A stretch of 64,000 nucleotides of DNA from a virus. The notes under the pieces were generated by a model. The model was given only the letters and a program-made list of their open reading frames with translations, ran no database searches and was not told the DNA's origin. Numbering within the stretch: the stretch's first letter is position 1; every line of letters begins with the position of its first letter. Both the position numbers and the translations under genes were made by a program. The DNA lies in the IMG/VR virus record IMGVR_UViG_3300037502_003876, positions 1 through 64,000 of that record, one strand, 5' to 3'. Shown piece by piece: positions 28,613 to 60,717 of the stretch.

Positions 28613-28869
28613 GCGCATACGAAGATCTCGTCAAGCGGCTGGCGGCGGCCTTGGTTTCATGGTCGACCGAGACAATCCAGGAACACACGACCGCCGGCCT
28701 TTCCAGCCATGAGGCAAACGGCGTCATGATCGACGTGGCGTCAACGTTCCTCGCATCCGTCCTGGCGAACGCCAACGTCAGCAGCGCCTCCGCGGCCATA
28801 CTCCATGAGAGACTGGCCGAGATGTACCGGACCGGTCGGGGCCCGGAGCCGGAAGAGGTGACATGGTGA
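28609..28869 (+). CDS. Hypothetical protein (locally lower GC)
   Basis: ATGA overlap with the upstream stop. 86 aa. Confidence 0.45.
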   Translation: MSAYEDLVKRLAAALVSWSTETIQEHTTAGLSSHEANGVMIDVASTFLASVLANANVSSASAAILHERLAEMYRTGRGPEPEEVTW

Positions 28870-29750
28870 CCGGCGAGCTCCACTACCTCGACCTGCTGCG
28901 CAACGCGCTCACCCGCGGCACGCTGCGCGAGACCCGGGCCGTGCTGCGCAGCACCGGCGAGCGCGTGCGGGCGTACACGCTGTGGGCGCCGGACCCGCTG
29001 CGCTTCGACCTGGCGCGCGGCTTCCCGGCGGTGACCACCAAGCGGCTCGCGTGGCGCAGCGTGGTGGCCGAGTTGCTGTGGTTCCTCTCCGGGTCGACGG
29101 ACGAGCGCGAACTGCGTGCGATGGGCGCCACCATCTGGCAGGCGTGGGCGGACCCGGAGACCGGCGAGGTGGGGCCGTCCTACGGGCACAACTGGCGCCG
29201 CTTCGGCGGGCACACGGACCAGGTTGCCGCGCTGGTCGAGGGCATCCGGGCGACGGTGCGCGACCCGGGCGCCAGCGTCGGGCGGAGGCTGATGCTGACG
29301 GCGCTGGACCCGGCCACCGTGCACGAGGCGGCGCTCTACCCGTGCCACCCGCTGGCGCAGTGGGACGTGCACGACGGGCAGCTGTCCTGTGCGTTCTACC
29401 AGCGCAGCGCCGACCTGTTCCTCGGGACGCCGTTCAACGTCGCGTCCTACGCGCTGCTGACGCACCTGCTGGCGGCCGTGTGCGGGCTGACGCCGGGGAC
29501 GCTGACGATGCACCTGGGCAACGCCCACGTCTACGAGAACCACGCGGACCTGGTGCGGGAGCAGCTACGCCGCTGGCCGAGGCCGTCGCCCCGGCTGAAC
29601 CTGCCCGCGCCGCTGGACTTCCAGCGCCCCCACGAGCACGCCCGGGTGCCGGTCTTCTGCGGGCCGGAGGGGCTGCCGCTGACGGTGGCGGACCTCGGGC
29701 TACTGGACTACGACCCACACCCGGCGCTCGCGGGTGAGGTGGCGGTGTGA
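28863..29750 (+). CDS. thyA: Thymidylate synthase family protein (ThyA-type)
   Basis: FPAVTTKRLAWRSVVAELLWFLSG, catalytic YPCH, YQRSADLFLGTPFNVASYALL, C-terminal DYDPHPALAGEVAV. Confidence 0.85.
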   Translation: MVTGELHYLDLLRNALTRGTLRETRAVLRSTGERVRAYTLWAPDPLRFDLARGFPAVTTKRLAWRSVVAELLWFLSGSTDERELRAMGATIWQAWADPETGEVGPSYGHNWRRFGGHTDQVAALVEGIRATVRDPGASVGRRLMLTALDPATVHEAALYPCHPLAQWDVHDGQLSCAFYQRSADLFLGTPFNVASYALLTHLLAAVCGLTPGTLTMHLGNAHVYENHADLVREQLRRWPRPSPRLNLPAPLDFQRPHEHARVPVFCGPEGLPLTVADLGLLDYDPHPALAGEVAV

Positions 29751-29815
29751 AGGTCGGCCGCCTCGCTCGACGCCCCCGACCCTGACCCCTCGCCCGCGTC
29801 CCGCAGGATGGGGCC

Positions 29816-30109
29816 ATGCGCCGACGACGCCAGCCGTTGCCCCCGCCGCCCCGGGTCGAGATGCCGCCCCCGCCCCGACCGTCCGCGGACCTGACCGTGG
29901 CGCTGTGCTGGGCGCTCCCGCCGGACGTGGCGCCGCGTCAGGCAGAGCACGCCCTCGACCTGGCGGTGATGCGCGGCCACGTCTCGTGGTGGGCGTGGCA
30001 GGGGGAGCGCGTCGTGGCCCACACGCGCCGGGTGCGGGCGACGCTGGCCGCGCTGTGCCCGACGCTCGGGCAGCCCGTAGCCCTGGCCGTCGACGAGCGG
30101 ACCCCCTGA
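29816..30109 (+). CDS. Hypothetical protein
   Basis: ATG lies 33 nt after the TGACCCC motif. 97 aa. Confidence 0.4.
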   Translation: MRRRRQPLPPPPRVEMPPPPRPSADLTVALCWALPPDVAPRQAEHALDLAVMRGHVSWWAWQGERVVAHTRRVRATLAALCPTLGQPVALAVDERTP

Positions 30110-30139
30110 CCCCCTGACCGGCGGTGGCACCGTGGGGAC

Positions 30140-30649
30140 ATGAAGCTCCACGCGATCCTCGCCCTCTCCCGCGACGGCGCCCTCGGCGACACCCGCACCC
30201 CGTCCGGGCTGCCCTGGCCCCGGCTCGGCCTCGACCTACAGCGGTTCCGCCGGCTGACCGAGGGCCGCGTCGTGCTGATGGGTCGGCGCACCCACGACAC
30301 GCTACCGCCGCGGGGTCTGCCGGGGAGGCGGCTCGTGGTGCTGACGCGGCACCTGGACGCCACGGGCCGGGTGGGAGCGCCATGCGCGTGGGTGCGGAGC
30401 GTGGAGGACGCGCTGGCCGCCTACCCGGGCGAGGAGGTGGTCGTGCTGGCCGGCGGCGCCGAGGTCTACCGGGCGCTGCTGTGGCGATGCTCGCGCATCT
30501 ACCTGACCACGGTGGAGGCGGACTACCCGGAAGCGGACGTGCGGCTGGACCCGGGCGAGGTGACGTGGCGGCGCACCTGCCTCAGCCGGGAGCGGCACCC
30601 GCCCGAGGACGGGACGCCGGTGGCGGTGACCTTCAGCGAGTGGGTGTGA
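30140..30649 (+). CDS. folA: Dihydrofolate reductase
   Basis: ILALSRDGALGD...LPWPRL..DLQRFRRLTEGRVVLMGRRTHDTLP...VLAGGAEVY. Confidence 0.85.
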   Translation: MKLHAILALSRDGALGDTRTPSGLPWPRLGLDLQRFRRLTEGRVVLMGRRTHDTLPPRGLPGRRLVVLTRHLDATGRVGAPCAWVRSVEDALAAYPGEEVVVLAGGAEVYRALLWRCSRIYLTTVEADYPEADVRLDPGEVTWRRTCLSRERHPPEDGTPVAVTFSEWV

Positions 30650-32257: not shown

Positions 32258-32358
32258 GGGGTCGTGTCCTTCCGCCGGGGTGGTAGGGCCCGGCACGCCG
32301 TCGAGCCCGGGGCCCTGGTTCTCCAGGACCTCCCGGGCGGGAGCGCGAGCGGGCGGGG

Positions 32359-32859: not shown

Positions 32860-32958
32860 GGGTCGTGTCTTTCTGCCGGAGCGGTGGGCCGGCACGGGCT
32901 TGAGCCCGGGGTCTCGGTTTGCCGAGACCTCCCGGGCGGGAGCGGGGTCAGGTGCGGG

Positions 32959-33451: not shown

Positions 33452-34006
33452 TCAGAGCCAGGGGCGGGTCGGGGACGCGATGGCCGCGGCCCGGTCCGCC
33501 GGGCTCATCTTGCTCACGGCCGCCCGCCACTCGGCCATCGCCCAGAACCGGTCACGCTGGGCCTGCGCCGCCTTGTGGTCGGCGCCGGTCTTGCGGACAT
33601 AGCAGGACTCCCGGACCACCTCGATCCACCCCTCGGACGCGGGGAGCCGGAGGCCCGTGGACTCGTACAGCTCGACCTCGCCCAGCAGCGAGTGGAAGGA
33701 GCGGGCCACCCGGACATCCAGTTTCCCGTCGAACGCCTTGACGGTGCGGACATCACGGACGCTGAGGGCGGTGCCCAGACCGTTGGCGTTGGAGGCCAGC
33801 GTCGCGGCCATGGTGCTCCGGGCGCGGCGTTCCGCGCGGGTGGCGTCCAGCCCCCACCCGAGGGCGCGGCTGGCGCAGTCGCGGCCGTAGTGCACCACCT
33901 CGCCGTCCTGGTTCTCCAGGGCCACGGAGCACTTGAGCTTGCGCTTGCCGCAGCAGTCGCAGGTGGTCACGGAGTCGTCGATGCCGAGAAAGGTGAGTTT
34001 GGTCAT
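33452..34006 (-). CDS. Hypothetical protein with an N-terminal CxCC zinc-knuckle-like motif
   Basis: 184-aa ORF with the conserved leader. The strong promoter at 34052-34079 lies upstream. Confidence 0.55.
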   Translation of the reverse strand: MTKLTFLGIDDSVTTCDCCGKRKLKCSVALENQDGEVVHYGRDCASRALGWGLDATRAERRARSTMAATLASNANGLGTALSVRDVRTVKAFDGKLDVRVARSFHSLLGEVELYESTGLRLPASEGWIEVVRESCYVRKTGADHKAAQAQRDRFWAMAEWRAAVSKMSPADRAAAIASPTRPWL

Positions 34007-34051
34007 GGTCGTGTCCTTCCGCCGGGGTGGTAGGGCCCGGCTACAGGACTC

Positions 34052-34079
34052 ATAATAATACGGGCGCCCGTATTGTCAA
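34052..34079 (-). promoter_or_regulatory. Near-consensus sigma70 promoter with a 16-bp perfect palindrome as spacer
   Basis: Minus strand reads TTGACA-ATACGGGCGCCCGTAT-TATTAT. The palindrome is at 34058-34073. Confidence 0.6.
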
Positions 34080-34123
34080 CGGACAATCGCACGGGGCTGT
34101 GTCGATTGTCCGGGCGGGTGGGC

Positions 34124-34739: not shown

Positions 34740-35084
34740 TCAGGCGGCGACGTCGGCGATCTTGGCGTTCTTGACGGCCTGCACGGCCGCCGCGTCGTCC
34801 AGGCCGGCCAGCGCCACGCCGGCCTCGTTGACGCTGTAGGTCAGGCCGTAGCGACCGCCGAGGGCGAGGAAGCCAAGCCGGTGCGCCTCGAACACGACGT
34901 GCTTGGCGCGCACCTTGCCGGGGTTGATGCTCAGCCAGGCGCCCTTGGGGCCATGCGCCTTGTGCCAGATCAGAACCCAGTCCGCCTTGTACCTCCGCTC
35001 GGTCATGAACCGCACGAGCTGGACGATGTGGCGGGGGAGGACGTGCTTGTTGTCGTAGTCGCCCTGGGGGTGGTGGATGAGCAT
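34740..35084 (-). CDS. Hypothetical protein
   Basis: 114-aa ORF with the conserved leader. The strong promoter at 35130-35157 lies upstream. Confidence 0.55.
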   Translation of the reverse strand: MLIHHPQGDYDNKHVLPRHIVQLVRFMTERRYKADWVLIWHKAHGPKGAWLSINPGKVRAKHVVFEAHRLGFLALGGRYGLTYSVNEAGVALAGLDDAAAVQAVKNAKIADVAA

Positions 35085-35129
35085 GGTCGTGTCCTTCCGC
35101 CGGGGTGGTGTGTCCCGGCTACAGGACTC

Positions 35130-35157
35130 ATACTAATACGGGCGCCCGTATTGTCAA
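35130..35157 (-). promoter_or_regulatory. Second copy of the palindrome-spacer promoter
   Basis: Minus strand reads TTGACA-ATACGGGCGCCCGTAT-TAGTAT. The palindrome is at 35136-35151. Confidence 0.6.
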
Positions 35158-35255
35158 CAACAAATCGACACGGTGCCGGCGACGAATCGTCCGCGGCCTA
35201 TCGTCCACACGGGGGCGTCCTGGCGGGCATGTGCCTGAAATCGTGGCACTTCCGC

Positions 35256-36959: not shown

Positions 36960-37787
36960 TCAGGTGTAGGCGCCCGCGTCGGGCATCCACGCGGCGAGCC
37001 GGTGGTAGAGGCTCGGGTAGTAGTGCCGCAGCCACGCGGCGCCGCCCCATCGGCTGTGGCCGCCGGGCACCCACCACGACTTGCGCAGCCGCCACGGCTC
37101 GCGCCCGTGGGCCAGCGCGAGGCACCGGTAGACCGGCAGCACCGGGATGGTGCGCGTCAGCAGGTAGGCCATCACGTCCAGCCCGGTCCAGTCCGCGAGC
37201 GGCGTGCTGACCCACTGGCCCTCGGCGCGGTACGGGTGCGCCTTGCGGTAGAGCGTGCCGTGGGCGGCGCGGCTCGCCCGGCGCCCGGCGCTCTCTTCCT
37301 GGCGCAGCCCGAGCATCACACCGTCGTAGCGGGCGCCGTGGCGCTCCACCACGTCGTAGAAGCACGCGCGGCTCAGCCCGGCCGCCCGGCTGTGCAGGTC
37401 GTCGCCCGCGCCGAGCGTGGCGGCGTTCTCGGCCATCCACGCCCGCGGGCTCACCGGCGGGCGCAGCACGGTGAGGTCCAGTCCCCAGGCGGTCGCCAGC
37501 CCGGCGAGGTAGTCCTCCTCGCCCGGGTAATCGAGGTCGTCCTTCTCGCTGGCCACGGGGAGCCGGTGCCCGAGGTCCACGCACGCCAGGTGCACGAGCG
37601 CGGTGGAGTCCTTGCCGCCGGACCACATGACGCACCACGACGGCGCCGCCGCCAGCGCGTCCGCGACGCGGCGCCGGGCCAGGTCCACGCGGCGCTGGTG
37701 GTCACGCTGCCGGGCGTGGAGGCGGCAGGTGGCCACCCAGGACCGCCACAGCCGTTCGTCCTCGGGGCGCAGGATGGGCTCGCTCAT
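36960..37787 (-). CDS. PAPS reductase / CysH-like adenine-nucleotide alpha-hydrolase
   Basis: PP-loop VMWSGGKDSTALVHL. ...GVMLGLRQEES..R.. Last gene of the long early operon. Confidence 0.75.
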   Translation of the reverse strand: MSEPILRPEDERLWRSWVATCRLHARQRDHQRRVDLARRRVADALAAAPSWCVMWSGGKDSTALVHLACVDLGHRLPVASEKDDLDYPGEEDYLAGLATAWGLDLTVLRPPVSPRAWMAENAATLGAGDDLHSRAAGLSRACFYDVVERHGARYDGVMLGLRQEESAGRRASRAAHGTLYRKAHPYRAEGQWVSTPLADWTGLDVMAYLLTRTIPVLPVYRCLALAHGREPWRLRKSWWVPGGHSRWGGAAWLRHYYPSLYHRLAAWMPDAGAYT

Positions 37788-37824
37788 GGGCCCACGGTGC
37801 CACGCCCCGGCGACGGGTCCGCCG

Positions 37825-38202
37825 TCAGCCCGCGGCGCGGCGCAGGAACCAGCCGCCGTTGCCGCGCTTCCACCGGGCAAAGCCGGCCCGCTCGTGGGCC
37901 ACCCGCGAGGCCGGGTTGTCGTCCGCGACGAAGGCGACCAGCGGGCGGTCCCGGTAGTGCTCGTACACCGCCGCCAGCAGCCCGCGTCCACGGGCCGCCG
38001 GGTCGATGTAGATCGGGCCGAGGCGCCACCCCCACCGGGTCTCGTGCGGGGTCACGAACCCGACCACGCGGCCGTCCACGACGAGCGCCACGCGGTGGTC
38101 TCCGCGGCGGGCGCGGCCGCGGGTGAACCAGCAGGCGTTGGCGTCGTCGATGAGGTGGGGCGGAATGAGCGTATCCTCCACGAGCGTCACAGGAGATCCC
38201 AT
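37825..38202 (-). CDS. GNAT-family N-acetyltransferase (small)
   Basis: RGRGLLAAVYEHY (acetyl-CoA motif A-like) and ...DNPASRVAHERAGFAR. Overlaps the upstream 3' end by 16 nt. Confidence 0.6.
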   Translation of the reverse strand: MGSPVTLVEDTLIPPHLIDDANACWFTRGRARRGDHRVALVVDGRVVGFVTPHETRWGWRLGPIYIDPAARGRGLLAAVYEHYRDRPLVAFVADDNPASRVAHERAGFARWKRGNGGWFLRRAAG

Positions 38203-39260
38203 AGCCGCTCCTTGAGCCGGTTGCGCTTGGGCTGGGACACCGGCACGGCGTTCTCCCAGTCGTTGAGGAGGATCTGCTTGACCTGCTGGCGGCACGTCTC
38301 CTCGTCCACACGCTGCCCGGCGAAGCGTTGCCGGAACCGGCCCACGCGGTCCAGCGGCGTCGTGTCGAGGAGGTAGTCCCGGTAGGCGCGCCAGGTCGGG
38401 AAGGTGGGCGGCAGGTCGGTCGCCTCGAACACGCCGGACTCGTCGTAGTAGAGCGCGGCGGCGTGGGGGCCGCCGATGCGGCGGACGAGGGCGTCGTAGG
38501 TGTCCGGCTCGAACTCTTGCAGGTCCGCCAGGCACCGGAACGACTTCTCGTGGATGAGGTTCGACACGCGCATCTTGCGGTCGACGGCGCCGTACTTGGC
38601 GAACATCCGGTCGTAGTGCCGGTTGTACGGGAGGGCGTGGTCGGCGATGTACTTCCACACGTCGCCCGTGGTCCAGTCGAACAGCGGGTAGCACCGGAAC
38701 GAGTGCGGGTTGTCGGTGGCGGTGGACCAGCGCCAGCCGTGGCAGCCGGCCCGCTTGGTGACGGAGCGGAACCGGTTGAACGACTCCCGGGACCGCAGCC
38801 CGACCAGGTGCGCGGTGGGCTCCCGGTCCTGCGCCTCGATCCAGGGGAAGAACTCGTAGAACCGGTCCGGGTACGGGCCGTCGACGCGGTGGATGGCGAG
38901 CGGGTGCTTGGGGCGCATCCACGGCTGACCCTCGCCCCACGCGTGGAGCCAGTAGTCCCGGTGACTGGTGGCGTTGGTCATGCGCACCGGCACCTGGTAC
39001 CAGGCCGGGTCGACGCGCGGGTCGGCCATCCACTCGGCGATCACGTCGATGGTGGCCTGGTACTCGGCCTCCTGGTCGAGAAAGAACAGGCCGACGCGCC
39101 GGCCCCGGCGGGCGGCCTCCTCCACGGCGAGGTGCCGCAGCACGGTGGAGTCCTTGCCGCCGCTGACGCTGACGACCACGCGGGGGAACCGGTCGAAGAC
39201 CTGCGCGACGCGCTCCCGGGCGGCGTCCAGCACGGTGCGGTCCGTGTAGGCGACCTTCAC
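38187..39260 (-). CDS. IbrA-like PAPS reductase with a C-terminal DUF3440-type extension
   Basis: GTG at 39260 (VKVAYTDRT...). PP-loop VVSVSGGKDSTVLRHL. Long C-terminal domain ...NLIHEKSFRCLADLQEFEPDTY... as in IbrA-type proteins. Confidence 0.7.
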   Translation of the reverse strand: MKVAYTDRTVLDAARERVAQVFDRFPRVVVSVSGGKDSTVLRHLAVEEAARRGRRVGLFFLDQEAEYQATIDVIAEWMADPRVDPAWYQVPVRMTNATSHRDYWLHAWGEGQPWMRPKHPLAIHRVDGPYPDRFYEFFPWIEAQDREPTAHLVGLRSRESFNRFRSVTKRAGCHGWRWSTATDNPHSFRCYPLFDWTTGDVWKYIADHALPYNRHYDRMFAKYGAVDRKMRVSNLIHEKSFRCLADLQEFEPDTYDALVRRIGGPHAAALYYDESGVFEATDLPPTFPTWRAYRDYLLDTTPLDRVGRFRQRFAGQRVDEETCRQQVKQILLNDWENAVPVSQPKRNRLKERLWDLL

Positions 39261-40042
39261 GCGGCCACCTCCGCGCAGGGCCGGAACGTGTCGGCGATGT
39301 GGTTGGTCAGGTGGGCGAGGCGCCGCAGCCGGTCGGTCAGGTACCGGTCCACGCCGAGGTCGGTGCGCACCACGTCCACGCGCTCCCGGCGCCACAGGTC
39401 GGCCGGGGCCGGGACGGCGCGCCCGGGCACGCGGGCCTGGGCCCACGCGCCGAGGCGGCGCAGCAGCGCGTGCTCGGTGTGCTCCTCCTCGAACGCCCGC
39501 GCCTTCTCCTCGGCGTAGGCGGCGCGCGTCGCGTCGTCCACCGGCAGCACGGTCTCGCGCAGGTCGATACGCCAGGCGTCCGGCGCGGTGATGACGCCGT
39601 GGCCCCAGCGGGCCAGCGCCTCCGGGCGGAAGGGGTCCGCCGGGCGCTTGCCGTCCAGCGCCGCCTTGTGGTGGCTCTCGGCGAGGTAGCTGTAGGTGTA
39701 GCCGTCGTAGGCGGCGCCGACCGCGCCGAAGGCGAACCACGCGCGCCACGGCTCGGCCACGAACAGCCACCGGTCCACCACGATGCGCTGCGCCGTCGTG
39801 GGCCGGAGCAGCACGGCGCCGGCCTCGGTCCGGTTGCCCGGGGTGATCATCTTGCTGAGGCCCACGAGGATGACCGTGCGGTGGGCGCGCAGGTCCGCGG
39901 TGGTGATGGGCCACGCGGCGTGGTGGCACCCCGGGAGGGTGCGCGGGGCCGGGTACCCCTTGGCCGTGACGCACAACGCACCCTCGCCGTGGGGCAGGGT
40001 GAGCGCCGCCGGGTCGCGGTGCAGGTAGATGCGCGGGGTCAT
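39257..40042 (-). CDS. Hypothetical protein (operon member, unknown fold)
   Basis: ATG at 40042 overlaps the upstream stop (ATGA), and its own stop overlaps the IbrA-like start. 261 aa. Confidence 0.5.
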   Translation of the reverse strand: MTPRIYLHRDPAALTLPHGEGALCVTAKGYPAPRTLPGCHHAAWPITTADLRAHRTVILVGLSKMITPGNRTEAGAVLLRPTTAQRIVVDRWLFVAEPWRAWFAFGAVGAAYDGYTYSYLAESHHKAALDGKRPADPFRPEALARWGHGVITAPDAWRIDLRETVLPVDDATRAAYAEEKARAFEEEHTEHALLRRLGAWAQARVPGRAVPAPADLWRRERVDVVRTDLGVDRYLTDRLRRLAHLTNHIADTFRPCAEVAA

Positions 40043-41460
40043 TCGGCCGCCTCCCCGCCCTCGTCGTCGGTGACCTCCCACGCGCGCTCGTACCGCTCGC
40101 CGGCCAGCAGCCGGGCGGCGCCGACCATCTGCCGGAGCCGCAGCGACTCCTCCACGCTCATACCGAGGGCGGCGGCGACGCGCTCGTCGTCCCACCCCTC
40201 GGCCATCATGCCGCGCATCAGGCTGGCCATGAGGTCGACCTGGTGCTTGCCGCGGGCGCGGTTGTGCCGGACCGTGGACGCCATGCGGTCCGCGCGGGAG
40301 GACGCGATCACGCTGGCCGGGAGGTAGGCGCGGCCGAGCCGGGTGGCGGCCGTCGTGCGCCGGTGAAAGCCGTCCACCACGGTCCAGTCCCCGCGCTCCG
40401 GCACCACGACGATGGGCATGGTGATGCCGTCGGCGCGCATCGACTGCTCCAGCAGGTCCAGTTCCGGGGACGCCACACGGTTGGGGTTGTAGTCGTTGGC
40501 GTGGACGCGGGCGGCCGGGAGCAACTGCGGGGACGCCGCCGGGTCGCCGTGGGTCACGTCCGCGACGAGCGCGCCGAGGGCCCGCTGGACGGCGTTGTAG
40601 GCGGCGACGCGCTCCTCGGCCGGGAGGCCGGCCAGCGCCACCAGCGCGGCGGTCACCGCGCCCACGTCCGCCGGGGCCGGGGCCGGCGTGGGGGGCGCGG
40701 GCTGCGCCGACAGCGGAGGCGGTGCGTCCTCGTCCTCGTCGCCCACGGTCAGGCTCAGCTGTTCCTGCGGGGTGGGGCGGGCGGGCGGGGGCAGGAGCGG
40801 GGCGCCGCCGGTGCGGGGGCGGTAGCCCTTCTTCTCGACCCAGGCCGCGGTGCGGGCCAGCCGGGTGGGGTTGAGTTCCGTGCCGGCGTAGTGGCACCCG
40901 AAGATGTGCGCCAGCCGGCTCGTCATGCCGAGCCCCGTGCACGGGTCCACCACGAGCGACCCGCGGGGCAGGCCGAGCCCGGCGAAGGCCGTGTGAGACA
41001 TCGGTTGCCCGTGGAGCCCGCTCGGGTCCGTGGTCAGCGGCCGCGGGCCGTAGTGCACCAGCAGGTTGGGGAGCTTCTGGCTGCTGTAGCGGACCTCGTA
41101 CCGGCGCTGCTCCGGCCAGCGCCACGCGGCGCCCGCGCGGGCCACCGCCTCGAAGAACCACCGGTTGCGGTCGGCGTGGATGCTCATCTCCACGAGGACG
41201 TGCTCCGGGTCGGCGGCGAGGCAGCACGCCACCCACGCATCCATCAGCCGGTCAAAGCCGGCGGCCGGCGGGGTGAGCCGGGCGTGGCGCCGCCAGTACT
41301 TCTCGTTCCCCGGATCCCAGGGCGGATCGCTGTAGACCAGCCAGGCGCGGCGGCCGGCCAGCGTGGCGCGGAAGGTGTCGAGGCCCTGTGGGCTGGTGAG
41401 GTCGGCGCAGGCGAGCGCCTGCGTCAGCCCTTCCGGGCCGTCCCAGATCGTGCTACTCAT
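40039..41460 (-). CDS. Fusion of a beta-class N6/N4 DNA amino-methyltransferase and a ParB/IbrB-like domain
   Basis: Motif IV LVYSDPPWDP precedes motif I VVDPCTGLGMTS. After a Pro/Ala linker comes ...NDYNPNRV...IVVVPERGDWTVVDGFHRR...VRHNRARGKH (ParB/Srx fold, IbrB-type). Confidence 0.7.
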   Translation of the reverse strand: MSSTIWDGPEGLTQALACADLTSPQGLDTFRATLAGRRAWLVYSDPPWDPGNEKYWRRHARLTPPAAGFDRLMDAWVACCLAADPEHVLVEMSIHADRNRWFFEAVARAGAAWRWPEQRRYEVRYSSQKLPNLLVHYGPRPLTTDPSGLHGQPMSHTAFAGLGLPRGSLVVDPCTGLGMTSRLAHIFGCHYAGTELNPTRLARTAAWVEKKGYRPRTGGAPLLPPPARPTPQEQLSLTVGDEDEDAPPPLSAQPAPPTPAPAPADVGAVTAALVALAGLPAEERVAAYNAVQRALGALVADVTHGDPAASPQLLPAARVHANDYNPNRVASPELDLLEQSMRADGITMPIVVVPERGDWTVVDGFHRRTTAATRLGRAYLPASVIASSRADRMASTVRHNRARGKHQVDLMASLMRGMMAEGWDDERVAAALGMSVEESLRLRQMVGAARLLAGERYERAWEVTDDEGGEAAE

Positions 41461-41539
41461 GGTGTGCTACCTCGTTCTAGCGAGTGTGGCCACGGGGTCG
41501 GGACGTTGGAAGCGTCGCCGGCCCCATTGAATTTCCAGC

Positions 41540-42277
41540 CTACGCGCCGCCGCCCGCCGGGTCAAGCGGCGCCGCCGCCAGCGCCTCGCTTGCCCGGTGC
41601 CAGTAGGGCGGCCGCAGGGTGCAGCGCCGGAGCGTGTAGGAGCCGGGGGCGTAGAGCCGGGCGGCCTCGGCGCCGTCCTGCACCGGGAGGCTCCGCTGGG
41701 GGCGCCCCTGCCAGACCAGCGCCCGGTCCTCGGCCGGCTCGATCTCGACGGACGCCACGCTCCCGAGCCCGGCGCGGCCGAGGTACGGGATGCGGGCGAG
41801 GAGGAGCCGGAGCCGGTCCGGGTCGCCGCGCAGGTGGGTGTCGAGGCAGGGGGTGTGGAGGACGGCGCGCGGGATGTTGAGGGACTTGTACGGGCCGCCG
41901 CTGGTGATGACCTTGCCCGGGAGGCGGTAGTGGTCCACGTCGGCCCGCTTGCGCCACAGCCGGACGCCCTCCACCGCGCCGACGTCCGGCGGGGGCGCCG
42001 CCCACGAGCACGCCCACAGCGCGTGGCCGCCGACGGTGACCTGCTCCAGCGGAAGGGGCAGGTGCGGCGGCGGACCGCGGTACCCGGCGAACACGTCCGC
42101 CGGCAGCTCGCCGGTGACGTGGGCCACGGCGAGCCAGGACAGCGACCCGTCCAGGTGCAACCCGTCCGGGCTCCACGCCACCGGCTGGCGGAACCACAGC
42201 CGGACGCGCAGCGGCTCCACGCGCCGGGGCGAGAGGAGGTCCGCCATGCGGTCGAGCCAGGGCCACGCCGGAGCCAT
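41540..42277 (-). CDS. RAMP protein, Cas5/Csf3-like (tentative)
   Basis: N-terminus ...SPDGLHLDGSLSWLAVAH, internal ITSGGPYKSLNIP, Gly-rich loop PYLGRAGLGSVASVEIEP. ATGA-coupled to the upstream gene. Confidence 0.45.
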   Translation of the reverse strand: MAPAWPWLDRMADLLSPRRVEPLRVRLWFRQPVAWSPDGLHLDGSLSWLAVAHVTGELPADVFAGYRGPPPHLPLPLEQVTVGGHALWACSWAAPPPDVGAVEGVRLWRKRADVDHYRLPGKVITSGGPYKSLNIPRAVLHTPCLDTHLRGDPDRLRLLLARIPYLGRAGLGSVASVEIEPAEDRALVWQGRPQRSLPVQDGAEAARLYAPGSYTLRRCTLRPPYWHRASEALAAAPLDPAGGGA

Positions 42278-43830
42278 CAGAACAGGCCCTCCTGGTCCGC
42301 TGGCGGAACGGGCGGCGCGGCCTGGGCGGCGCCCTTCTTCGGGCGGCTGCGCTTCGCCTCGGCCCGGGCGCCCTCGCTGCTGCCGCGGTCGAGCACGGCC
42401 GCCGGCTCGCGGCCCCCAGCCAGCACCCAGGCGCGCATGGCGTCCCGGTGCTGGTCGACGTGGGCGAGGTAGACGGACGGGTCCGGGAGGGGGGCGGCGC
42501 CGGCAGCGGGGCGCCACCCGTCCGTGACGAACGCCCCGAAGGCGGAGGACGTGCGGGCGCCGGTCAGCCCCCCGGCCGCCATCAGCGCGAGCCCGTCGGC
42601 GAGGCACGCGGCCGTGACCGGGGACGGGGCGAACGGGGTGCGCCACTGGACCGTGTGGACGAACTGCGCGCCGCGCACGATGACCTCGGTCTGCATCAGC
42701 ATCTGCACGCCGTCGGCGCCGTCGAGTTCCCGGTGGGCGTGCCGTGTGCTCTGCCGTGTGGTCACCAGCGTGTCCGCCGGGGCGAGCCGGGCGGCGAGGT
42801 CCGCGACGCTCTCGCCGGGCCGGGCCAGGGTCGGGTGCACCAGCCAGGCGTTCTCGCGGCAGACCAGCGTGAGGTCCGCCACGGCGAGGCACCCGGCGGC
42901 CGGGCCCTGCCCGGGGAGCGACCCGGCCACGAGGTCGAGGGGCGGGCAGAGGCGGCGCATGGCGCGGCGCGCGGACGGCACCACGTCGAGCGTGTCGGCG
43001 CCGGCCTCGATGCTGCCGCCGGCGAGGAGCGCGTGGGCGACGCCGGGCGGGATCTCCTCCGGGGCCAGGCCGAGGAGGGCGAGGTAGCGCAGGGCGAGGA
43101 CGTCGCGGAGCTGGCCGCGGAAGGCGTTGCCGGCGACGAACGGCACCAGCGACCGCCGCCCGGTGAGCGGGTCCACGGCGGGCTCGCGGCGCACCTGGTT
43201 GACGTTGCCGCTCTTCGTGTCGGCGCCGTGGGCCAGCGGCGACGCCAGCGTGAGCACGGCCGCGTGGTGGGGCACGGCCACCGCCCGGCCCGGGTCCGGC
43301 AGCACGGCGGGCGAGCCGTGGTGGAGGGCCACCGGCTGCGCGGCGAGGTCCGCCCAGAGTTGCTCGTCCTCGTCCGGGTCGGCGGCGCGCGCCGTGGCGA
43401 AGGTGGCGAACAGGTCCACGCCGTCCGACCGCAGCGCGTCGCGCACGGCGTCCAGGCCCATCGGGGGCGAGGCGAGCAGCCGGTGCCAGTCGATGACCTC
43501 GCGCCGCGCCGGGAAGAAGACCGCCAGCGGCCGCAGCCCGTCCGGCCCGGGCACGCCCATCGGGTCCACGCTGAAGCGGTCGCACAGGTCGCCGAAGAAC
43601 TGCGCCGTGCTGCTGGCGCCGAGCGCGAGCGGCAGCAGGCAGTTCCCGAGTTCCACCGGCAGGTTGCGCAGCCGGTGCTCGCCGATGCGGTCCTTGTCCA
43701 CGGCGCGGACCAGCGAGCGCAGCAGGTAGCCGAGGCACCGCCGGGTGGCGGCCAGGCCGGAGGCGTCGATGCGGACCAGCCGGGTCCACGGGGTCGGGTC
43801 GGTGTGGGTCGTCGGGGTCGGGTCGTTCAT
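42277..43830 (-). CDS. Cas7-family RAMP (Csf2/Csm3-like) with a ~170-aa helical N-terminal extension (possible Cas11-like fusion)
   Basis: LTLASPLAHGADTKSGNVNQVRRE...LVPFVAGNAFRGQLRD; ALLAGGSIE; LDLVAGSL. Start ATG 43830 overlaps the upstream stop. Confidence 0.55.
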   Translation of the reverse strand: MNDPTPTTHTDPTPWTRLVRIDASGLAATRRCLGYLLRSLVRAVDKDRIGEHRLRNLPVELGNCLLPLALGASSTAQFFGDLCDRFSVDPMGVPGPDGLRPLAVFFPARREVIDWHRLLASPPMGLDAVRDALRSDGVDLFATFATARAADPDEDEQLWADLAAQPVALHHGSPAVLPDPGRAVAVPHHAAVLTLASPLAHGADTKSGNVNQVRREPAVDPLTGRRSLVPFVAGNAFRGQLRDVLALRYLALLGLAPEEIPPGVAHALLAGGSIEAGADTLDVVPSARRAMRRLCPPLDLVAGSLPGQGPAAGCLAVADLTLVCRENAWLVHPTLARPGESVADLAARLAPADTLVTTRQSTRHAHRELDGADGVQMLMQTEVIVRGAQFVHTVQWRTPFAPSPVTAACLADGLALMAAGGLTGARTSSAFGAFVTDGWRPAAGAAPLPDPSVYLAHVDQHRDAMRAWVLAGGREPAAVLDRGSSEGARAEAKRSRPKKGAAQAAPPVPPADQEGLF

Positions 43831-44666
43831 ACGGGGAAGATCTCCACGAAGAGGGTCCACCACGGCGCCCGCAGGTGGTCGCGGGTCGTGGCCAGGTCGT
43901 TCATCCACCGGGACCGTAGCCGGAGCGGGCACCGGGTCGGCGCCATGCCGGCCAGCAGCGCCGCGCGGATCTCGCTCGCGTACACGCCGGCCGCCCGCGC
44001 CTCGGCCACGAGCGGCGCCAGCGTGTCCCGGAGCCGGGTCCACCGGGGCACGTCGACGAGGATCGGGTCGCCGTCGTCGACCTGGAGCGGGTAGCGGTCG
44101 GCGTCGAAGGCGACGCGGGCGTAGAGGCCGACGTGCTTGGCTTGCAGGCGGACGAGGGGTTCCTGCCCGGCGGGCACCGCGGCGCCGGGCCACCAGGCGC
44201 GCTGGGCGTGGGACTCGCCGCCCTTGTCGATGCCCATCCACCCCCAGCCGGCGACGAACGGCGGGGCGGGCGGGCGCAGCAGCGCGCCGAGCGGGTCCGG
44301 GCGTCGCCACGGGGAGTCGGCGCCGCCGAGCCCGGGGAGGGGCCGCGTGCCCACGAAGAAGACGCCGCGGCCGGGGGCGGCGAACCACAGCGTCGCCCGC
44401 AGCGGGATCGACCGGCAGACGAACAGGCACGCGGCGCACACCCGGTCGCCGCCGTGGCCCCATGCGCGGTGGGCGTTCAGCACCGTGAGAAAGTTATCGC
44501 TGATGGCGTCCGCCAGCCGCCACGCCGCCGGCGCCCCGCACCCGGCGCACGCCCCGGCCGGCCCCCGCTGCGGGAAGATCGGGCGCCCCACGCTGTCGCG
44601 CACGTCGTCCTCGGGCCACCCGGTCGGGTGCCGGGCCGCCGCCCACACCAGGTGACTAGCGTGCAT
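43827..44666 (-). CDS. Zinc-knuckle protein in the Cas8-like/Csf1 position (tentative)
   Basis: CAGCG...(36 aa)...CAAC four-Cys pattern near the N-terminus. 279 aa. Located between the Cas6-like and Cas7-like genes. Confidence 0.4.
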   Translation of the reverse strand: MHASHLVWAAARHPTGWPEDDVRDSVGRPIFPQRGPAGACAGCGAPAAWRLADAISDNFLTVLNAHRAWGHGGDRVCAACLFVCRSIPLRATLWFAAPGRGVFFVGTRPLPGLGGADSPWRRPDPLGALLRPPAPPFVAGWGWMGIDKGGESHAQRAWWPGAAVPAGQEPLVRLQAKHVGLYARVAFDADRYPLQVDDGDPILVDVPRWTRLRDTLAPLVAEARAAGVYASEIRAALLAGMAPTRCPLRLRSRWMNDLATTRDHLRAPWWTLFVEIFPV

Positions 44667-45666
44667 CGGGCCGCTCCAGGCGCAGGCACGAGACCTCCTC
44701 CAGTTCCACCCGGCCGAAGCCGAGCGACACCCGGCCGCCGAGCCCGATGCGCTCCGCGCACCGGAGCAGCCACAGCCCGAGCGCGTCGGTCTCGACCACG
44801 ACCCGGCCGCGCCACCCGGCGAGGAATCCGCCCGGCTCGTCGCTGAACCGCGAGGACCGCTGGCGCACGGTCTCCGTGTGGTGCTCGACCATCCGCAGGC
44901 GCACGCACCCCTCCACGCCCTGGCGGCGCAGGGACAGCCGCTCGCGGAGCCCGCCGGTCAGCGCGCCCACGAGCGATGGGCCGGTCGGGTGCGGGTAGGT
45001 GGTCTTGTCCTGGACGCTGTTGCGGACGCACACCGGGGTGTGGGCGAGGAGGCGCACCCGGTAGAGGCCGGGCGCGGAGAACTCCGGGGTGTACGGGACC
45101 GAGCACGCGCCGAAGGTGGCGCGCACCTCGCCCCGGCCGAACCAGTGGCCGCGCCAGGACCGGCCCTGCCACTGGAGCGCCAGGGCGCGGTCGCGGTGGA
45201 GCACGGACCATCCGGAGGGGGTCGGGGTGAGCAGGAGCGCGAAGGTGGGGACGAGCGTGTTGTGGTCCTGCCCGAAGGCGCCGGTGAGCAGGGCGTGCAC
45301 GGCGCGCGTGTCCGCCAGCGCCACGCCGCCCGCCGGGCACGGGTCGAGGGCGAGCGGCAGCAGTCCGCCCGGGAGCGTGTCCGGGTAGGAGGCAAGGTCG
45401 TGTTCGGGGACGGGGCCCTGGTAGGGCGGCTTGACGGTGACCAGCGTGGGCACGCCGCCGCGGTGGCCGATGACCATGCGGACGGAGAGCGGCTTGGGGC
45501 TGCGGAGGAGCTGGTCGCCGTCCGGGTAGGAGCGGACGACGTGGGCGCGGCGCAGCAGGTCGTCGAGCTGGTCCCGGGCCTCGGCCTCCGTCAGCCGGGC
45601 GGCGAAGCGGGCGCGGTACTGGTCGACGGCGTGCTGGCTGATGGCGACGCGGAAGAGTTCGGTCAT
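44656..45666 (-). CDS. Cas6-like RAMP protein with an extra ~90-aa N-terminal domain
   Basis: C-terminus GFLAGWRGRVVVETDALGLWLLRCAERIGLGGRVSLGFGRVELE matches the Cas6 GhGxxxxxGhG glycine-rich loop. ATGA-coupled to dcd. Confidence 0.5.
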   Translation of the reverse strand: MTELFRVAISQHAVDQYRARFAARLTEAEARDQLDDLLRRAHVVRSYPDGDQLLRSPKPLSVRMVIGHRGGVPTLVTVKPPYQGPVPEHDLASYPDTLPGGLLPLALDPCPAGGVALADTRAVHALLTGAFGQDHNTLVPTFALLLTPTPSGWSVLHRDRALALQWQGRSWRGHWFGRGEVRATFGACSVPYTPEFSAPGLYRVRLLAHTPVCVRNSVQDKTTYPHPTGPSLVGALTGGLRERLSLRRQGVEGCVRLRMVEHHTETVRQRSSRFSDEPGGFLAGWRGRVVVETDALGLWLLRCAERIGLGGRVSLGFGRVELEEVSCLRLERPDAR

Positions 45667-46220
45667 ACGTGCCTCGTGCGGTGGAGGTGGCTGCGGCTCG
45701 GCTGCGGGCCGTCGGCCTCGTTGGCGTCGGCGTAGTGGCCGCGGCGGTCGTAGGGCTCGACGGCGCCGGTGACCTCGTGGAACACGGCCTGGCAGACGGG
45801 CCACCCGGGCGGGACACGCAGGTGCGTCAGCACGGAGATCTCCAGGGTGATCTGCCCACCGAAGCCCGGCTCGACGTGGCCGGCGGTGCGGTGGACCTCC
45901 AGGCTCTTGCGGCCGGGGCTGCTCTTGCCGTCGACGCGGACGACGTGCGCCGGGGCGTAGATGCGCTCGATGGTGGCACCGAGGTAGAAGCGCCCGGGCT
46001 CCAGCAGGAAGGCGCCGGTGCTGTCCAGCGGCACCGGATCGAAGTGGTACTCACACGGCTCACGCACGTCGAGGATGCTGTAGCCGGGGCCCAGGAGCAG
46101 CAGCCTCGGGTGCAGGTGGAGGGTGACGCCGGCCTGGTCGATCTGGTCGTCGTCGCAGGGGGCGATGGTGATGACGCCACGGCGCATGGCGTCGCGGAGG
46201 GCAGGGCCGGTGAGGATCAT
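45663..46220 (-). CDS. dcd: dCTP deaminase (dUTPase superfamily)
   Basis: VDGKSSPGRKSLEVHRTAGHVEPGFGGQITLEI. Confidence 0.85.
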   Translation of the reverse strand: MILTGPALRDAMRRGVITIAPCDDDQIDQAGVTLHLHPRLLLLGPGYSILDVREPCEYHFDPVPLDSTGAFLLEPGRFYLGATIERIYAPAHVVRVDGKSSPGRKSLEVHRTAGHVEPGFGGQITLEISVLTHLRVPPGWPVCQAVFHEVTGAVEPYDRRGHYADANEADGPQPSRSHLHRTRHV

Positions 46221-48286: not shown

Positions 48287-48598
48287 TCAGGTGTCCGCGC
48301 TTGTCGCTGCCTCGCGGAGGGCGCTGATGATGCCGAACCCGGCGCCGCGTGGGAGGATTTTGGCAAAGACCTTCACCTCGCTCGGGTCTTCTGTGACGAC
48401 CTCGAAGTCTGCGACGCTGACGATGTAAGAAATATCAGAATGCTTGCCGCTCACCTCGCCGAGGTAGACGCATTGCCCCTCCGATGTCTGGATTAGCCTC
48501 CAGTCCTCCTCGGTCGCAGGGAATGTCGCAGTAAGAGGGGCGCTGCGCCAGAAATCCAGTCGCCACTTGATGACGCGAGTCGGAGCGTTCGCTTCCAT
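48287..48598 (-). CDS. Hypothetical protein on a lower-GC island (moron candidate)
   Basis: 103 aa. Own AAAGGAG ribosome-binding site. Visibly lower local GC than the flanks. Confidence 0.5.
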   Translation of the reverse strand: MEANAPTRVIKWRLDFWRSAPLTATFPATEEDWRLIQTSEGQCVYLGEVSGKHSDISYIVSVADFEVVTEDPSEVKVFAKILPRGAGFGIISALREAATSADT

Positions 48599-49261: not shown

Positions 49262-50029
49262 TCAGCCGGTCAGGTCGAGCGCCATCTGCGTCGGGGCGGC
49301 GGCGTGGCCGAGCTGCGCGGCAGCGAACGCGCGAGCGAACCCGCGCGGGGTGAGGCTGCGGAGGTACTTGGTCCGGGCGCTGGTGCCGCCGAGGGACTGG
49401 AGCCACGAGCCCTGCGACGACGTGGCGACGGGCGGGACGGGGCGCCGCTCCGGCAGACGGAACGCGCCCCACAGGAGCGTGCGCTTGGTGTAGGCGCCGA
49501 CGTCGCGCACGAGGTCCACGTCCTCCGGGGAGAACGGACCGCCGGGGCCGCGGCGCCGGAGCGCGTCGAGGCGGCCGAGGGTGGCGTCGGTCGGGTCGGT
49601 CCAGCCGGCGTACTCCCACGGGTCGAAGGCGAGCGACGGCGGGCCGAGGGACGGCGCGAGGGTGGCGATGCGGCCGACGGGGTTCTCCAGGGCCCAGAAG
49701 TCCGGCCGCAGGAAGTCGACGCACCGGAGCACCTGCCGGACCAGGTGCACGCTGGCCGCGGTGCGGCCGTCGGCGTCCTTGGCCGCCCAGTGCTGCGCCC
49801 CGGACACGGCGAAGTCGGTGCACGGCGGGGCGGCCAGCAGGCCGTCGACGGTATCGAAGCGTTGCAGCACGTCGTCCAGCAGCGACGCGGCGGACCAGGT
49901 GGCGAGGTCGTCGCCGTGCTGAAGGTCCGCCTGGACGACGTTCCACCCGGCCTCCTCGAACGGCTGGCACCAGTGCCCCGACGCGTCGAACAGGCTGAGC
50001 AGCGTGCGGGGTCGCTCCCACACGGTCAC
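49262..50029 (-). CDS. DNA (cytosine-5)-methyltransferase-like protein
   Basis: LSLFDASGH (motif I-like), LLAAPPCTDFAVSG (PC motif IV), FWALENPVG (ENV motif VI). GTG start overlaps the upstream stop. Confidence 0.65.
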   Translation of the reverse strand: MTVWERPRTLLSLFDASGHWCQPFEEAGWNVVQADLQHGDDLATWSAASLLDDVLQRFDTVDGLLAAPPCTDFAVSGAQHWAAKDADGRTAASVHLVRQVLRCVDFLRPDFWALENPVGRIATLAPSLGPPSLAFDPWEYAGWTDPTDATLGRLDALRRRGPGGPFSPEDVDLVRDVGAYTKRTLLWGAFRLPERRPVPPVATSSQGSWLQSLGGTSARTKYLRSLTPRGFARAFAAAQLGHAAAPTQMALDLTG

Positions 50030-60067: not shown

Positions 60068-60717
60068 CCCCCGCGAACGACACCCTGCCGGCGCCGCGGA
60101 CGCTGGCCGCGCACTTCCACCTCGTGCTCTTGCAGAAGCGCATCCGGTCGTGCACGGCGTGCCCGCTCCACGAGCACCGTCAGCGGGCCGTGTTCTCCCG
60201 GGGCAACCACCACGCGGACGTGATGTTCGTCGGGGAGGCGCCGGGCGCCGACGAGGACCAGCAAGGACTGCCGTTCGTCGGGCCGTCGGGGGAGATGCTG
60301 GACCGGATGATCGGGGCCATGGGTCTGCGGCAGGAGGAGGTGTACATCGCCAACGTCTGCCGCTGCCGTCCGCCGGCCAACCGCCTGCCGACGCCGGAGG
60401 AGGTGGCCGCCTGCCTCCCCTACCTGCATGAGCAGATCGCGCTCGTGCAACCCCGCGTCCTCGTGGCCCTGGGGTCGACGGCGGCCAAGGCGCTCACGCA
60501 GTCCACCTCGGGCATCAAGGCCCTGCGCGGCACCTGGCAGGACTACCGGCGCGGGGAGACGGTGGTGCCGGTGATGCCGACCTATCACCCGGCCTTCCTC
60601 CTGCGGGAGACGTTGGCCGGTCGGGTCGGGGCGAAGCAGGACGCCTGGCGCGACCTTCAGGCAGTGCTGACCCTCCTCAACCGCCCGGTGCCCACGGCGA
60701 AGGAGGCGCGGTCATGA
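60064..60717 (+). CDS. Uracil-DNA glycosylase, family 4
   Basis: CTACPLHE...VMFVGEAPGADEDQQGLPFVGPSGEMLDRMI...PTYHPAFLLR. Confidence 0.85.
   Translation: MTPANDTLPAPRTLAAHFHLVLLQKRIRSCTACPLHEHRQRAVFSRGNHHADVMFVGEAPGADEDQQGLPFVGPSGEMLDRMIGAMGLRQEEVYIANVCRCRPPANRLPTPEEVAACLPYLHEQIALVQPRVLVALGSTAAKALTQSTSGIKALRGTWQDYRRGETVVPVMPTYHPAFLLRETLAGRVGAKQDAWRDLQAVLTLLNRPVPTAKEARS

Follow-up and report, generated by a model that had tools for sequence, protein, structure and literature searches.

A probable array-less type IV-B-like CRISPR-Cas cassette with a Cas6-family gene and syntenic enzyme genes on a temperate contractile-tailed phage

What can a set of CRISPR-Cas effector genes do on a phage without a CRISPR array? 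The question is raised by four consecutive minus-strand genes at positions 41540-45666 of a 64-kb stretch of viral DNA (positions 1 to 64,000 of IMG/VR record IMGVR_UViG_3300037502_003876; hereafter, the window), which an initial annotation, made from motifs, had read as a type IV-B-like effector module. Among the major CRISPR-Cas subtypes, IV-B is the last to lack a known function (PMC8175902), and the 2025 classification still lists it as uncharacterised (PMC12669027). From profile searches, structural models and comparison with related loci, we concluded that the locus is very probably a IV-B-like, array-less type IV effector cassette carried by a temperate contractile-tailed phage.

Identity of the four Cas-like proteins

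Using the open reading frame (ORF) list and a gene map based on GC content at third codon positions (GC3), we verified the four minus-strand ORFs as first annotated: A, a Cas6-family protein of 336 aa (44656-45666); B, a Csf1 of 279 aa (43827-44666); C, a 517-aa protein composed of an N-terminal domain and a Csf2-type Cas7 (42277-43830); and D, a Csf3/Cas5 of 245 aa (41540-42277). Their GC3 values of 0.96-0.98 are as expected for genuine genes at the ~74% GC found across the window. The peptide motifs named in the initial annotation were all present in the translations, namely GLGGRVSLGFGRV and GFLAGWRGRVVVE in A, CAGC...CAAC in B, LTLASPLAHGADTKSGN, LVPFVAGNAFRGQLRD, ALLAGGS and LDLVAGS in C, and LHLDGSL and LGRAGLGSV in D. 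Three of the four proposed translational couplings were borne out when the junctions were read directly: ATGA at 45663-45666 on the dcd side of A, an 11-nt overlap at 44656-66 between A and B (ATG at 44666-64, TAG at 44658-56), and ATGA at 43827-43830 between B and C. The ATGA placed at 42275-79 was wrong, the C/D junction (42275-42279) being TGATG with a stop/start overlap of 1 nt, which is a trivial correction.

As judged from their sequences, the resemblance of A-D to Cas proteins is far above chance. The profile searches and the AlphaFold/Foldseek comparison proposed with the initial annotation supported the Cas6, Csf1, Csf2-type Cas7 and Csf3/Cas5 identities, and a lack of RAMP/Cas matches for the Cas7-like and Cas6-like proteins, the outcome that would have spoken against it, clearly did not occur. 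The names given to the four proteins by Pfam and NCBIfam agree with those of PADLOC, but the scores lie below the cutoffs of these two collections. The relatives considered here total ~70 loci (designated L), and synteny was assessed by phmmer searches of the window proteins against the six-frame ORFs of 68 of them.

The Csf2-type Cas7 domain of protein C (residues ~191-470; 42421..43260, minus strand) carries the motifs AHGADxKxGN and PFxAGNAxRGQxRD and matched the PADLOC typeIV_Cas7 models with an E-value of 2e-37 over residues 192-465. A family profile built from a 25-sequence alignment retrieved the Csf2 chain of the IV-B structure 7JHY (E 4e-17), and the protein also matched phrog_22746 (E 6.5e-18). 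The AlphaFold2 (AF2) model of C, with a mean predicted local distance difference test (pLDDT) score of 79.7, had IV-A and IV-B Csf2 proteins as its best Foldseek matches in the PDB (7xg1, 7jhy and 8rc3; E ~1e-8). These matches uphold the earlier placement of C among the Cas7-group RAMPs. Since the full-length Foldseek list was filled by Cas7 matches, it was uninformative on the N-terminal domain. The K/R/A-rich tail of C (42277..42420, minus strand) is disordered (pLDDT <50 at residues 478-516) and ends in QEGLF and the stop codon; the QEGLF motif forms the last five codons of the gene (window 42280-42294). A Q-x-x-L-F terminus is found in 12 of the 25 homologues (QRPLF, QKALF and QAELF in relatives), and other relatives have short I-D-F or G-A-L termini. 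We take this terminus to resemble the bacterial beta-sliding-clamp binding motif and regard it as a candidate of that kind.

The N-terminal domain of C (residues 1-~190; 43261..43830, minus strand) is helical with a small beta insert at residues 92-113 and folds confidently in the AF2 model (pLDDT ~90). The domain is kept in all 25 homologues, with invariant Y34, L35, R37, R52, E59, R84, W114, A141, F143 and A144. A stand-alone homologue was not found in a profile search of 5.8 billion proteins, which returned two fragments only; profile searches of PDB sequences gave no match for the domain, and its hidden Markov model did not match the Cas11 proteins of pRHL2 or Natrinema. In a sister viral clade from IMG/VR, Csf2 has an in-frame N-terminal extension of ~130 aa that is recognisable as type IV Cas11 (PADLOC E 2.8e-5; PDB 11fs 'Cas11c', E 0.003), and a Cas11-Cas7 fusion at this position is thus real in relatives. 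The hhalign comparison of the N-domain with these extensions gave a colinear but weak alignment (P 0.0024, probability 12%), reversed controls giving P ~0.2. The tentative Cas11 label of the initial annotation therefore stands in part: the position in the gene order and the helical fold fit, whereas Cas11 profiles are silent and the hhalign signal is weak. Our best guess is that the N-domain is a Cas11-derived small-subunit domain, a divergent candidate fused to Cas7.

Most viral IV-B-like Csf2 genes in our collection are fused to Cas11 (L013-L017, L030, L033-L044, L047-L065), an arrangement that was not found in the literature searched. A further ORF of 528 aa (P0025; L006 10001-11587 and L007 1479-3065) joins the N-domain, the first ~130 residues of Cas7 and a full Csf3 in one frame. 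Its reading as a Cas7-Csf3 fusion was set aside, as it contains only half of Cas7 and may have arisen by rearrangement; the ORF may be an artefact of assembly or a naturally arisen fusion/deletion variant, but was seen in two samples.

Protein A (44656..45666, minus strand) consists of an alpha/beta domain (residues 1-80) followed by a two-RRM Cas6 fold (residues ~95-330), and its C-terminal half matched PADLOC Cas6 models (E 1.6e-5). For the AF2 model (pLDDT 87, predicted TM-score 0.74), the top 29 PDB matches in Foldseek were exclusively Cas6 endoribonucleases, including the type IV Cas6 6NJY, and were followed by Cas6/Cas6e-type chains from Cascade entries. The alignments spanned 255-294 columns, approximately the whole two-RRM fold, with E-values of ~1e-7 to 2e-5 and target-normalised TM-scores of 0.50-0.62. 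Pfam CRISPR_Cas6 (PF10040) was matched by 50 of the 63 aligned family members, and a profile search of 1.84 billion representatives placed the Cas6-like family of A at 445 clusters. In the 63 sequences, whose mean identity is 24%, residues G308, G310 and G318 of the C-terminal G-rich loop GLGGRVSLGFGRV are invariant, and conservation reaches at least 90% at His124 (helix 117-131) and at His135. The annotated Cas6 glycine-rich-loop signature was thus corroborated by the PADLOC models, the Foldseek structures and PF10040 in relatives. The conserved His124/His135 pair is suggestive of Cas6 catalytic residues, and RNase activity is putative. The dN/dS ratio (nonsynonymous to synonymous substitution rates) of A is 0.09.

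Homologues of A adjoin csf genes in L004, L018, L022, L023, L025-L028, L069 and L070, either upstream of csf1 or downstream of csf3, and a Cas6-like gene lies next to csf genes in 11 of the 11 genomic contexts inspected; no homologue of A was found in L003, L019-L021 or L024. That a large Cas6-like family accompanies IV-B cassettes without arrays implies that its RNA substrate is specific and is something other than a local CRISPR array. In most family members the N-terminus forms a CxxC...CSxxCR Zn-ribbon, in place of which A has its small domain (window 45427-45666). A homologue of this small domain is encoded in L010 (6630-6896), in the same stop-to-stop ORF, directly downstream of Csf3.

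Protein B (43827..44666, minus strand) is a Csf1, the type IV Cas8-like large subunit, and retains the CxxC...CxxC knuckle (C40-C43, C77-C80). It matched the PADLOC typeIV_Cas8 models Csf1_0_IV (E 8e-12) and Csf1 (E 3.5e-4), in line with the proposed Csf1-like identity. Unlike IV-C, it gave no HD or Cas10 match. In 17 related loci, the gene immediately preceding that of Cas7 encodes a homologue of B, and the dN/dS of B is 0.10-0.31. Protein D (41540..42277, minus strand; 245 aa; dN/dS 0.16-0.35) is the type IV Cas5, Csf3: it matched PADLOC typeIV_Cas5 Csf3_0_IV with an E-value of 1e-28, as the Cas5/Csf3-like reading had anticipated, and NCBIfam TIGR03116 cas5_csf3 with an E-value of 4e-11, below the curated cutoff. 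A product identical to D is on record with PF27782 Csf3.

Subtype, missing components and the larger operon

The window was searched for a CRISPR array by TRF, a repeat finder and custom scans, and none was found, although single repeats would be missed; Rfam families, including the CRISPR-DR models, also gave no match in the window. Array scans of the 68 loci then collected revealed no array of three or more repeats, and repeat pairs 50-95 nt apart amounted, in the window and these loci, to a few isolated pairs, none array-like. No mini-array was detected near Cas6-like family members in the loci scanned. An array-like candidate in L033 proved to be a 60-nt coding tandem repeat, and in L006 and L013 the two copies of a repeat lie closer together than would fit CRISPR. 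The 79-nt gap between csf3 and the gene encoding a methyltransferase (MTase)-ParB protein was dismissed as a guide RNA, its folding being no better than that of shuffles (z -1.1). The window contains no tRNA genes.

Scanning 39 window proteins against Pfam or PADLOC, with some small ORFs left unscanned, detected no DinG, RecD, Cas10-HD, Cas1, Cas2 or effector nuclease. The replicative DnaB is the only helicase found in the window, and the only unannotated ORF of at least 600 aa in the gene map encodes the likely tape-measure protein. These scans agree with the earlier statement that the 64 kb hold no array, adaptation gene or DinG-type helicase. Neither the window nor the ~70 related loci yielded an adaptation gene or a helicase or nuclease effector.

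Subtype IV-B is defined by csf1, cas11, csf2, csf3 and a cysH-like gene, without an array or Cas6 (PMC8175902), and its defining features are present here except for two, as Cas6 is present and a separate cas11 is absent. The proposed IV-B match was sustained by the gene order, which is that of pRHL2 and the Natrinema plasmid, by the lack of an array, helicase and nuclease, and by the CysH-like genes nearby. IV-B systems are found mainly on actinobacterial plasmids and sometimes on prophages, with Cas6 in only 12 instances (PMC7038947); in view of these 12 exceptions, Cas6 marks a variant rather than an exclusion from IV-B. The initial annotation had listed three departures from IV-B: the Cas6-like gene, the lack of array, adaptation and helicase genes, and carriage by a phage. 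The features themselves are present, but phage carriage and Cas6 have already been published (PMC7038947); IV-B on prophages and Cas6-bearing IV-B are thus uncommon but known. In the literature searched, we found no description of the divergent fused N-domain, of the size of the Cas6-like family or of the extended, interleaved enzyme set.

The cassette shares with the IV-B systems of Rhodococcus jostii RHA1 pRHL2 and Mycobacterium sp. JS623 (PDB 7JHY) the order of Csf1, small-subunit position, Csf2 and Csf3, the cysH-like gene, the location on a mobile element of a high-GC host, and the lack of an array, adaptation module, helicase and nuclease. In contrast to these systems, it has no separate cas11, an N-domain of ~190 aa fused to Cas7, a Cas6-family gene, and additional MTase-ParB, g51, PAPS/DUF3440 and GNAT genes, and it resides on a temperate tailed phage rather than a plasmid. 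The JS623 complex consists of a Csf2 filament and a Cas11 filament on heterogeneous RNA (PMC7937560). Protein C is only ~30% identical to canonical Csf2; its family profile found the IV-B Csf2 7JHY, whereas IV-A Csf2 chains were found by structure only. With IV-A (Csf1-Csf2-Csf3-Cas6/Csf5 plus DinG and an array) the cassette has the three Csf core proteins and the Cas6-family subunit in common, and Csf2 structures are the best Foldseek matches of C, with the Cas6 6NJY among the best for A; it differs in having no DinG and no array, a possible Cas11-like domain, and CysH-like genes, which are absent in IV-A.

On plasmids, protein C has relatives only in canonical IV-B loci (those of R. jostii RHA1 pRHL2 and of haloarchaeal plasmids, including that of Natrinema), with csf1-cas11-csf2-csf3 order and a PAPS-reductase gene nearby. 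No cultured-phage relative was found by tblastn of Cas7 and Csf3 against 50,697 GenBank phages. Atypical IV-B systems have been described in archaeal viruses (PMC10848311); those of Fuxiviridae are likewise virus-borne and have CysH next to Csf3, but the Fuxivirus has a two-repeat mini-array and no reported Cas6, whereas the window has no repeat. The 12 Cas6-bearing IV-B loci (PMC7038947), compared by description only, share the retention of Cas6. The sister Cas11-Cas7-fused loci (for instance L013, L016 Sulfuriferula, L033 and L042) share the fused extension, the lack of an array, a phage-like setting and the association with CysH, PAPS/DUF3440 and ParB; they differ in their recognisable Cas11 of ~130 aa, in having the enzyme genes between cas7 and csf3, and in that we saw no gene for a Cas6-like protein in them. 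With their Cas6-bearing and Cas11-fused groups, these cassettes suggest a need for sub-variants in the classification of IV-B, and the sister-clade relatives demonstrate that a 1:1 fusion of small subunit and Cas7 is possible.

Downstream of csf3, the cas genes continue into enzyme genes as one co-directional, overlapping operon on the minus strand. The first encodes a 473-aa protein (40039..41460; dN/dS 0.12-0.17) with an MTase-like N-terminal half and a ParB/Srx-type C-terminal half (Pfam ParB_N E 5e-5); both halves occur as separate genes beside csf genes in many loci, also between cas7 and csf3. It is followed by g51 (39257..40042), which lies between the ParB and PAPS-reductase/DUF3440 genes and encodes a 261-aa protein of unassigned family with no match in Pfam, NCBIfam or PADLOC; homologues occupy the equivalent position in L019-L021, L024, L043 and L071-L073. 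The next gene (38187..39260; dN/dS 0.03-0.12) encodes a DndC/BrxP-like PP-loop (SGGKDS) protein of the PAPS-reductase family with DUF3440 (Pfam PAPS_reduct E 2e-18, DUF3440 E 5e-6; PADLOC DndC E 1e-9), whose homologues lie in or beside csf operons in 16 distinct loci (19 including near-identical contigs). A 125-aa GNAT acetyltransferase (37825..38202; Acetyltransf_1 E 5e-7) is syntenic in L019-22, L024, L028 and L033. The last gene, 3.7 kb downstream of the cas genes, encodes a 275-aa CysH-like PP-loop protein with SGGKDS (36960..37787; PAPS_reduct E 7e-10); it is homologous to the cysH-like gene of R. jostii pRHL2 IV-B (E 2e-12), and its homologues lie beside or inside csf operons in ~36 distinct loci (45 including near-identical contigs). 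The PAPS_reduct matches and the conserved synteny confirm the CysH-like PAPS reductases noted earlier near the cas genes.

The order Csf1-Cas7-Csf3-(Cas6)-MTase/ParB-g51-PAPS/DUF3440-GNAT-CysH is kept down to ~40% identity (L019-L025), as well as in near-identical phages of other samples (L071, L072), and dozens of viral contigs, at 25-96% identity, share the cassette architecture. In the sister clade, the enzyme genes are interleaved between cas7 and csf3, as cas7-cysH-csf3 in many loci, cas7-PAPS/DUF3440-parB-csf3 in L042 and L047, and cas7-cysH-MT-GNAT-PAPS-parB-csf3 in L033. All nine genes of the cassette evolve under purifying selection (dN/dS 0.03-0.37). Based on this selection and the synteny of the enzymes with the cas genes, we placed the functional unit at 36960-45666. 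Both PAPS-like proteins retain the SGGKDS PP-loop, and their nearest relatives in defence systems are DndC and BrxP. DndC/BrxP-like PP-loop proteins (two here) and a ParB/Srx partner (DndB, DpdB) are shared with the Dnd, BREX type 4 and Dpd modules, and the pairing logic of DndC-like and ParB/Srx proteins in DNA-modification systems has been described (PMC12839542). In comparison with Dnd, however, the DndC match is weak, scoring far under the NCBIfam cutoff, neither a cysteine desulfurase nor DndDE nor a restriction partner was detected, and modification is hypothetical.

Possible function of the cassette

The Cas proteins may assemble a Csf ribonucleoprotein filament in which the Cas6-family subunit would bind, and probably cleave, a structured RNA and remain on its 3' end, Csf3 would cap the 5' end, and Csf1 would act as the large subunit. 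Protein C would polymerise in several copies along the RNA, its N-domain serving as a built-in 1:1 small subunit. Given a cassette without nuclease or helicase, the complex would work either by base-pairing to a nucleic acid or by coating it, and given a phage without an array, the RNA would be supplied in trans by host CRISPR arrays or non-CRISPR transcripts. The bound complex could then recruit the PP-loop, ParB, MTase and GNAT enzymes for chemical modification or marking, and for the phage the gain could lie in anti-restriction, in excluding competitors or in lysogeny control. That CysH is recruited and modifies the bound nucleic acid has been proposed before (PMC8175902, PMC7038947). We hold this account, identity and mechanism taken together, to be the best explanation overall, with a confidence slightly above even; the recruitment of the co-encoded modification enzymes by the Csf complex, considered by itself, is tentative and has somewhat less than an even chance of being correct.

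Several findings weigh against the account. The putative link between the enzymes and the cas genes is drawn from synteny only. No repeat or hairpin cognate to the Cas6-like protein could be identified in the window or its relatives, and the closest relative (L003, 67% identity) has no Cas6-like gene, so Cas6 is dispensable in at least some members. The N-domain of C matched no PADLOC Cas11 profile at E<=1, and its beta insert is absent from the Cas11-like extensions of the sister loci in the profile alignment. Moreover, the JS623 IV-B complex bound heterogeneous RNAs when expressed heterologously (PMC7937560), which leaves guide-directed targeting a hypothesis for every IV-B system.

The absence of an array, nuclease and helicase, and a Cas6-family subunit without phage repeats to process, would also be compatible with a sponge or anti-CRISPR that trapped host pre-crRNA or CRISPR RNAs (crRNAs) in inert complexes early in infection. 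This idea has been discussed for IV-B (PMC8175902, PMC7038947), and it suits a phage-borne cassette among DNA-metabolism genes. It leaves unexplained, however, why the cas genes are embedded among conserved PP-loop, ParB, MTase and GNAT genes, which in the sister clade lie between cas7 and csf3; such a complex anti-CRISPR was judged unlikely (PMC7038947), most IV-B hosts have no other CRISPR system, and the JS623 complex failed to load co-expressed I-E crRNAs (PMC8175902). We thus consider trapping of host crRNAs unlikely. An equally unlikely use of host-array crRNAs would be their processing by the phage Cas6 for silencing of competing phages and plasmids, whose transcription or replication would be blocked by binding only, as in IV-A, with no chemical modification. 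Interference by IV-A is nuclease-independent (PMC12669027, PMC11519345), the full set of ribonucleoprotein subunits including Cas6 is under purifying selection, and the QxxLF tail, a lead only, could tether such a complex to the replication machinery. Yet every type IV subtype associated with arrays encodes a DinG or RecD helicase (PMC7038947), and the cassette has neither; the ~70 related loci have no array, and this explanation gives the conserved enzymes no role.

The heterogeneous small RNAs bound by the only studied IV-B complex (PMC7937560) are consistent with a filament that coats phage or host RNAs unspecifically, for example to stabilise or sequester them or to present them to the PP-loop enzymes for modification of RNA rather than DNA. 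PP-loop ATPases include many RNA-modifying enzymes, and the PP-loop proteins of the cassette gave weak TilS and LarE-type matches. We regard such a non-guided scaffold as quite improbable: the conservation of the Cas6-family subunit, with its two nearly invariant histidines, implies that the RNA substrate is specific, and pairs of ParB/Srx and DndC-like proteins are typical of DNA-modification systems (PMC12839542). A decaying CRISPR-Cas remnant, carried passively, could account for the absence of array, adaptation and effector nuclease genes. The genes are, however, intact and translationally coupled, their dN/dS values are 0.03-0.37 and their architecture recurs in dozens of contigs; this reading, to which we assign hardly any probability, is contradicted by the conservation and is the only rival excluded.

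The locus and its relatives show that the cysH-like gene is one member of a conserved enzyme set (DndC-like PAPS-reductase/DUF3440, ParB/Srx, MTase, GNAT), and the interleaving of this set with cas7 and cas5 in some lineages points to nucleic-acid modification as the output. In its boldest and rather speculative form, for which we see a small chance, a widespread and as yet unclassified phage IV-B branch would be an array-independent, RNA-directed modification machine with a dedicated Cas6-family subunit and small-subunit/Cas7 fusions, in which a Csf filament on Cas6-processed host or phage RNA brings the DndC-like and CysH-like PP-loop enzymes, the ParB/Srx-MTase and the GNAT to complementary DNA or RNA; the machine might be tethered to the replisome via the QxxLF tail. 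If true, this would be the first function for IV-B and a new CRISPR-Cas effector logic, in which a mark is written instead of a cut being made.

Phage context and further observations

The window encodes a sheath, baseplate J, a GpP-like baseplate protein, a tyrosine integrase, ThyA, DHFR, dCTP deaminase and DnaB, together with a protein of the uracil-DNA glycosylase (UDG) family, a C5-MTase, a sigma-like factor and a RuvC-like protein; a terminase, a Mu-like portal and a protease are encoded directly upstream of it. The sheath, baseplate and integrase genes, with the terminase and portal upstream, bear out the description of the element as a temperate myovirus. The term early operon, also used for the locus, is inferred from gene content, namely a co-directional block of DNA-metabolism genes. 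The terminase is <40% identical to any phage, with matches scattered over unrelated hosts. The label actinophage was set aside, its sole support being the GC content of 74% and the published bias of IV-B towards Actinobacteria.

Genes for ThyA, DHFR, dcd, a C5-MTase-like and a UDG-superfamily protein form a pyrimidine set at 28863-30649, 45663-46220, 49262-50029 and 60064-60717, and this metabolism/modification gene set may be related to DNA modification by the neighbouring cassette. In comparison with L071, the proteins from Cas6 to the integrase are 95-99% identical, while the dCTP deaminase (window 45663-46220 versus L071 1655-2209) is 61% identical, with a dN/dS of 0.82 that is a crude estimate. 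On account of this drop in identity, we placed a recombination (mosaic) boundary at the dcd/Cas6 junction.

Two copies of an 86-nt cassette, 91% identical (34004-34089 and 35082-35167), and a partial third copy (32260-32294) precede three minus-strand genes beside the integrase. The cassette contains TTGACA, the palindrome ATACGGGCGCCCGTAT, TATTAT, a leader hairpin (GCCGGG-N9-CCCGGC), a ribosome-binding site and ATG, and these elements suggest a repeated promoter/operator/leader belonging to the region of lysogeny control. This description fits the hairpin repeated in the three 5'-untranslated regions near the integrase better than a role as Cas6 substrate, which was rejected. Two 72-nt GC-rich nested hairpin copies, 75% identical (32287-32358 and 32886-32957), lie between small minus-strand genes and may be the covarying hairpins mentioned in the initial annotation.

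A 103-aa minus-strand ORF (48287-48598) fills an apparent gap in the operon. It fails the GC3 filter passed by all its neighbours, has no PADLOC match, and may be a recently acquired lower-GC gene. In-frame tandem repeats are found in structural genes (60 nt x ~10 at 22780-23385 and 105 nt x 3 at 9394-9708), where they probably encode repeats of tail-fibre-like or baseplate-associated proteins.

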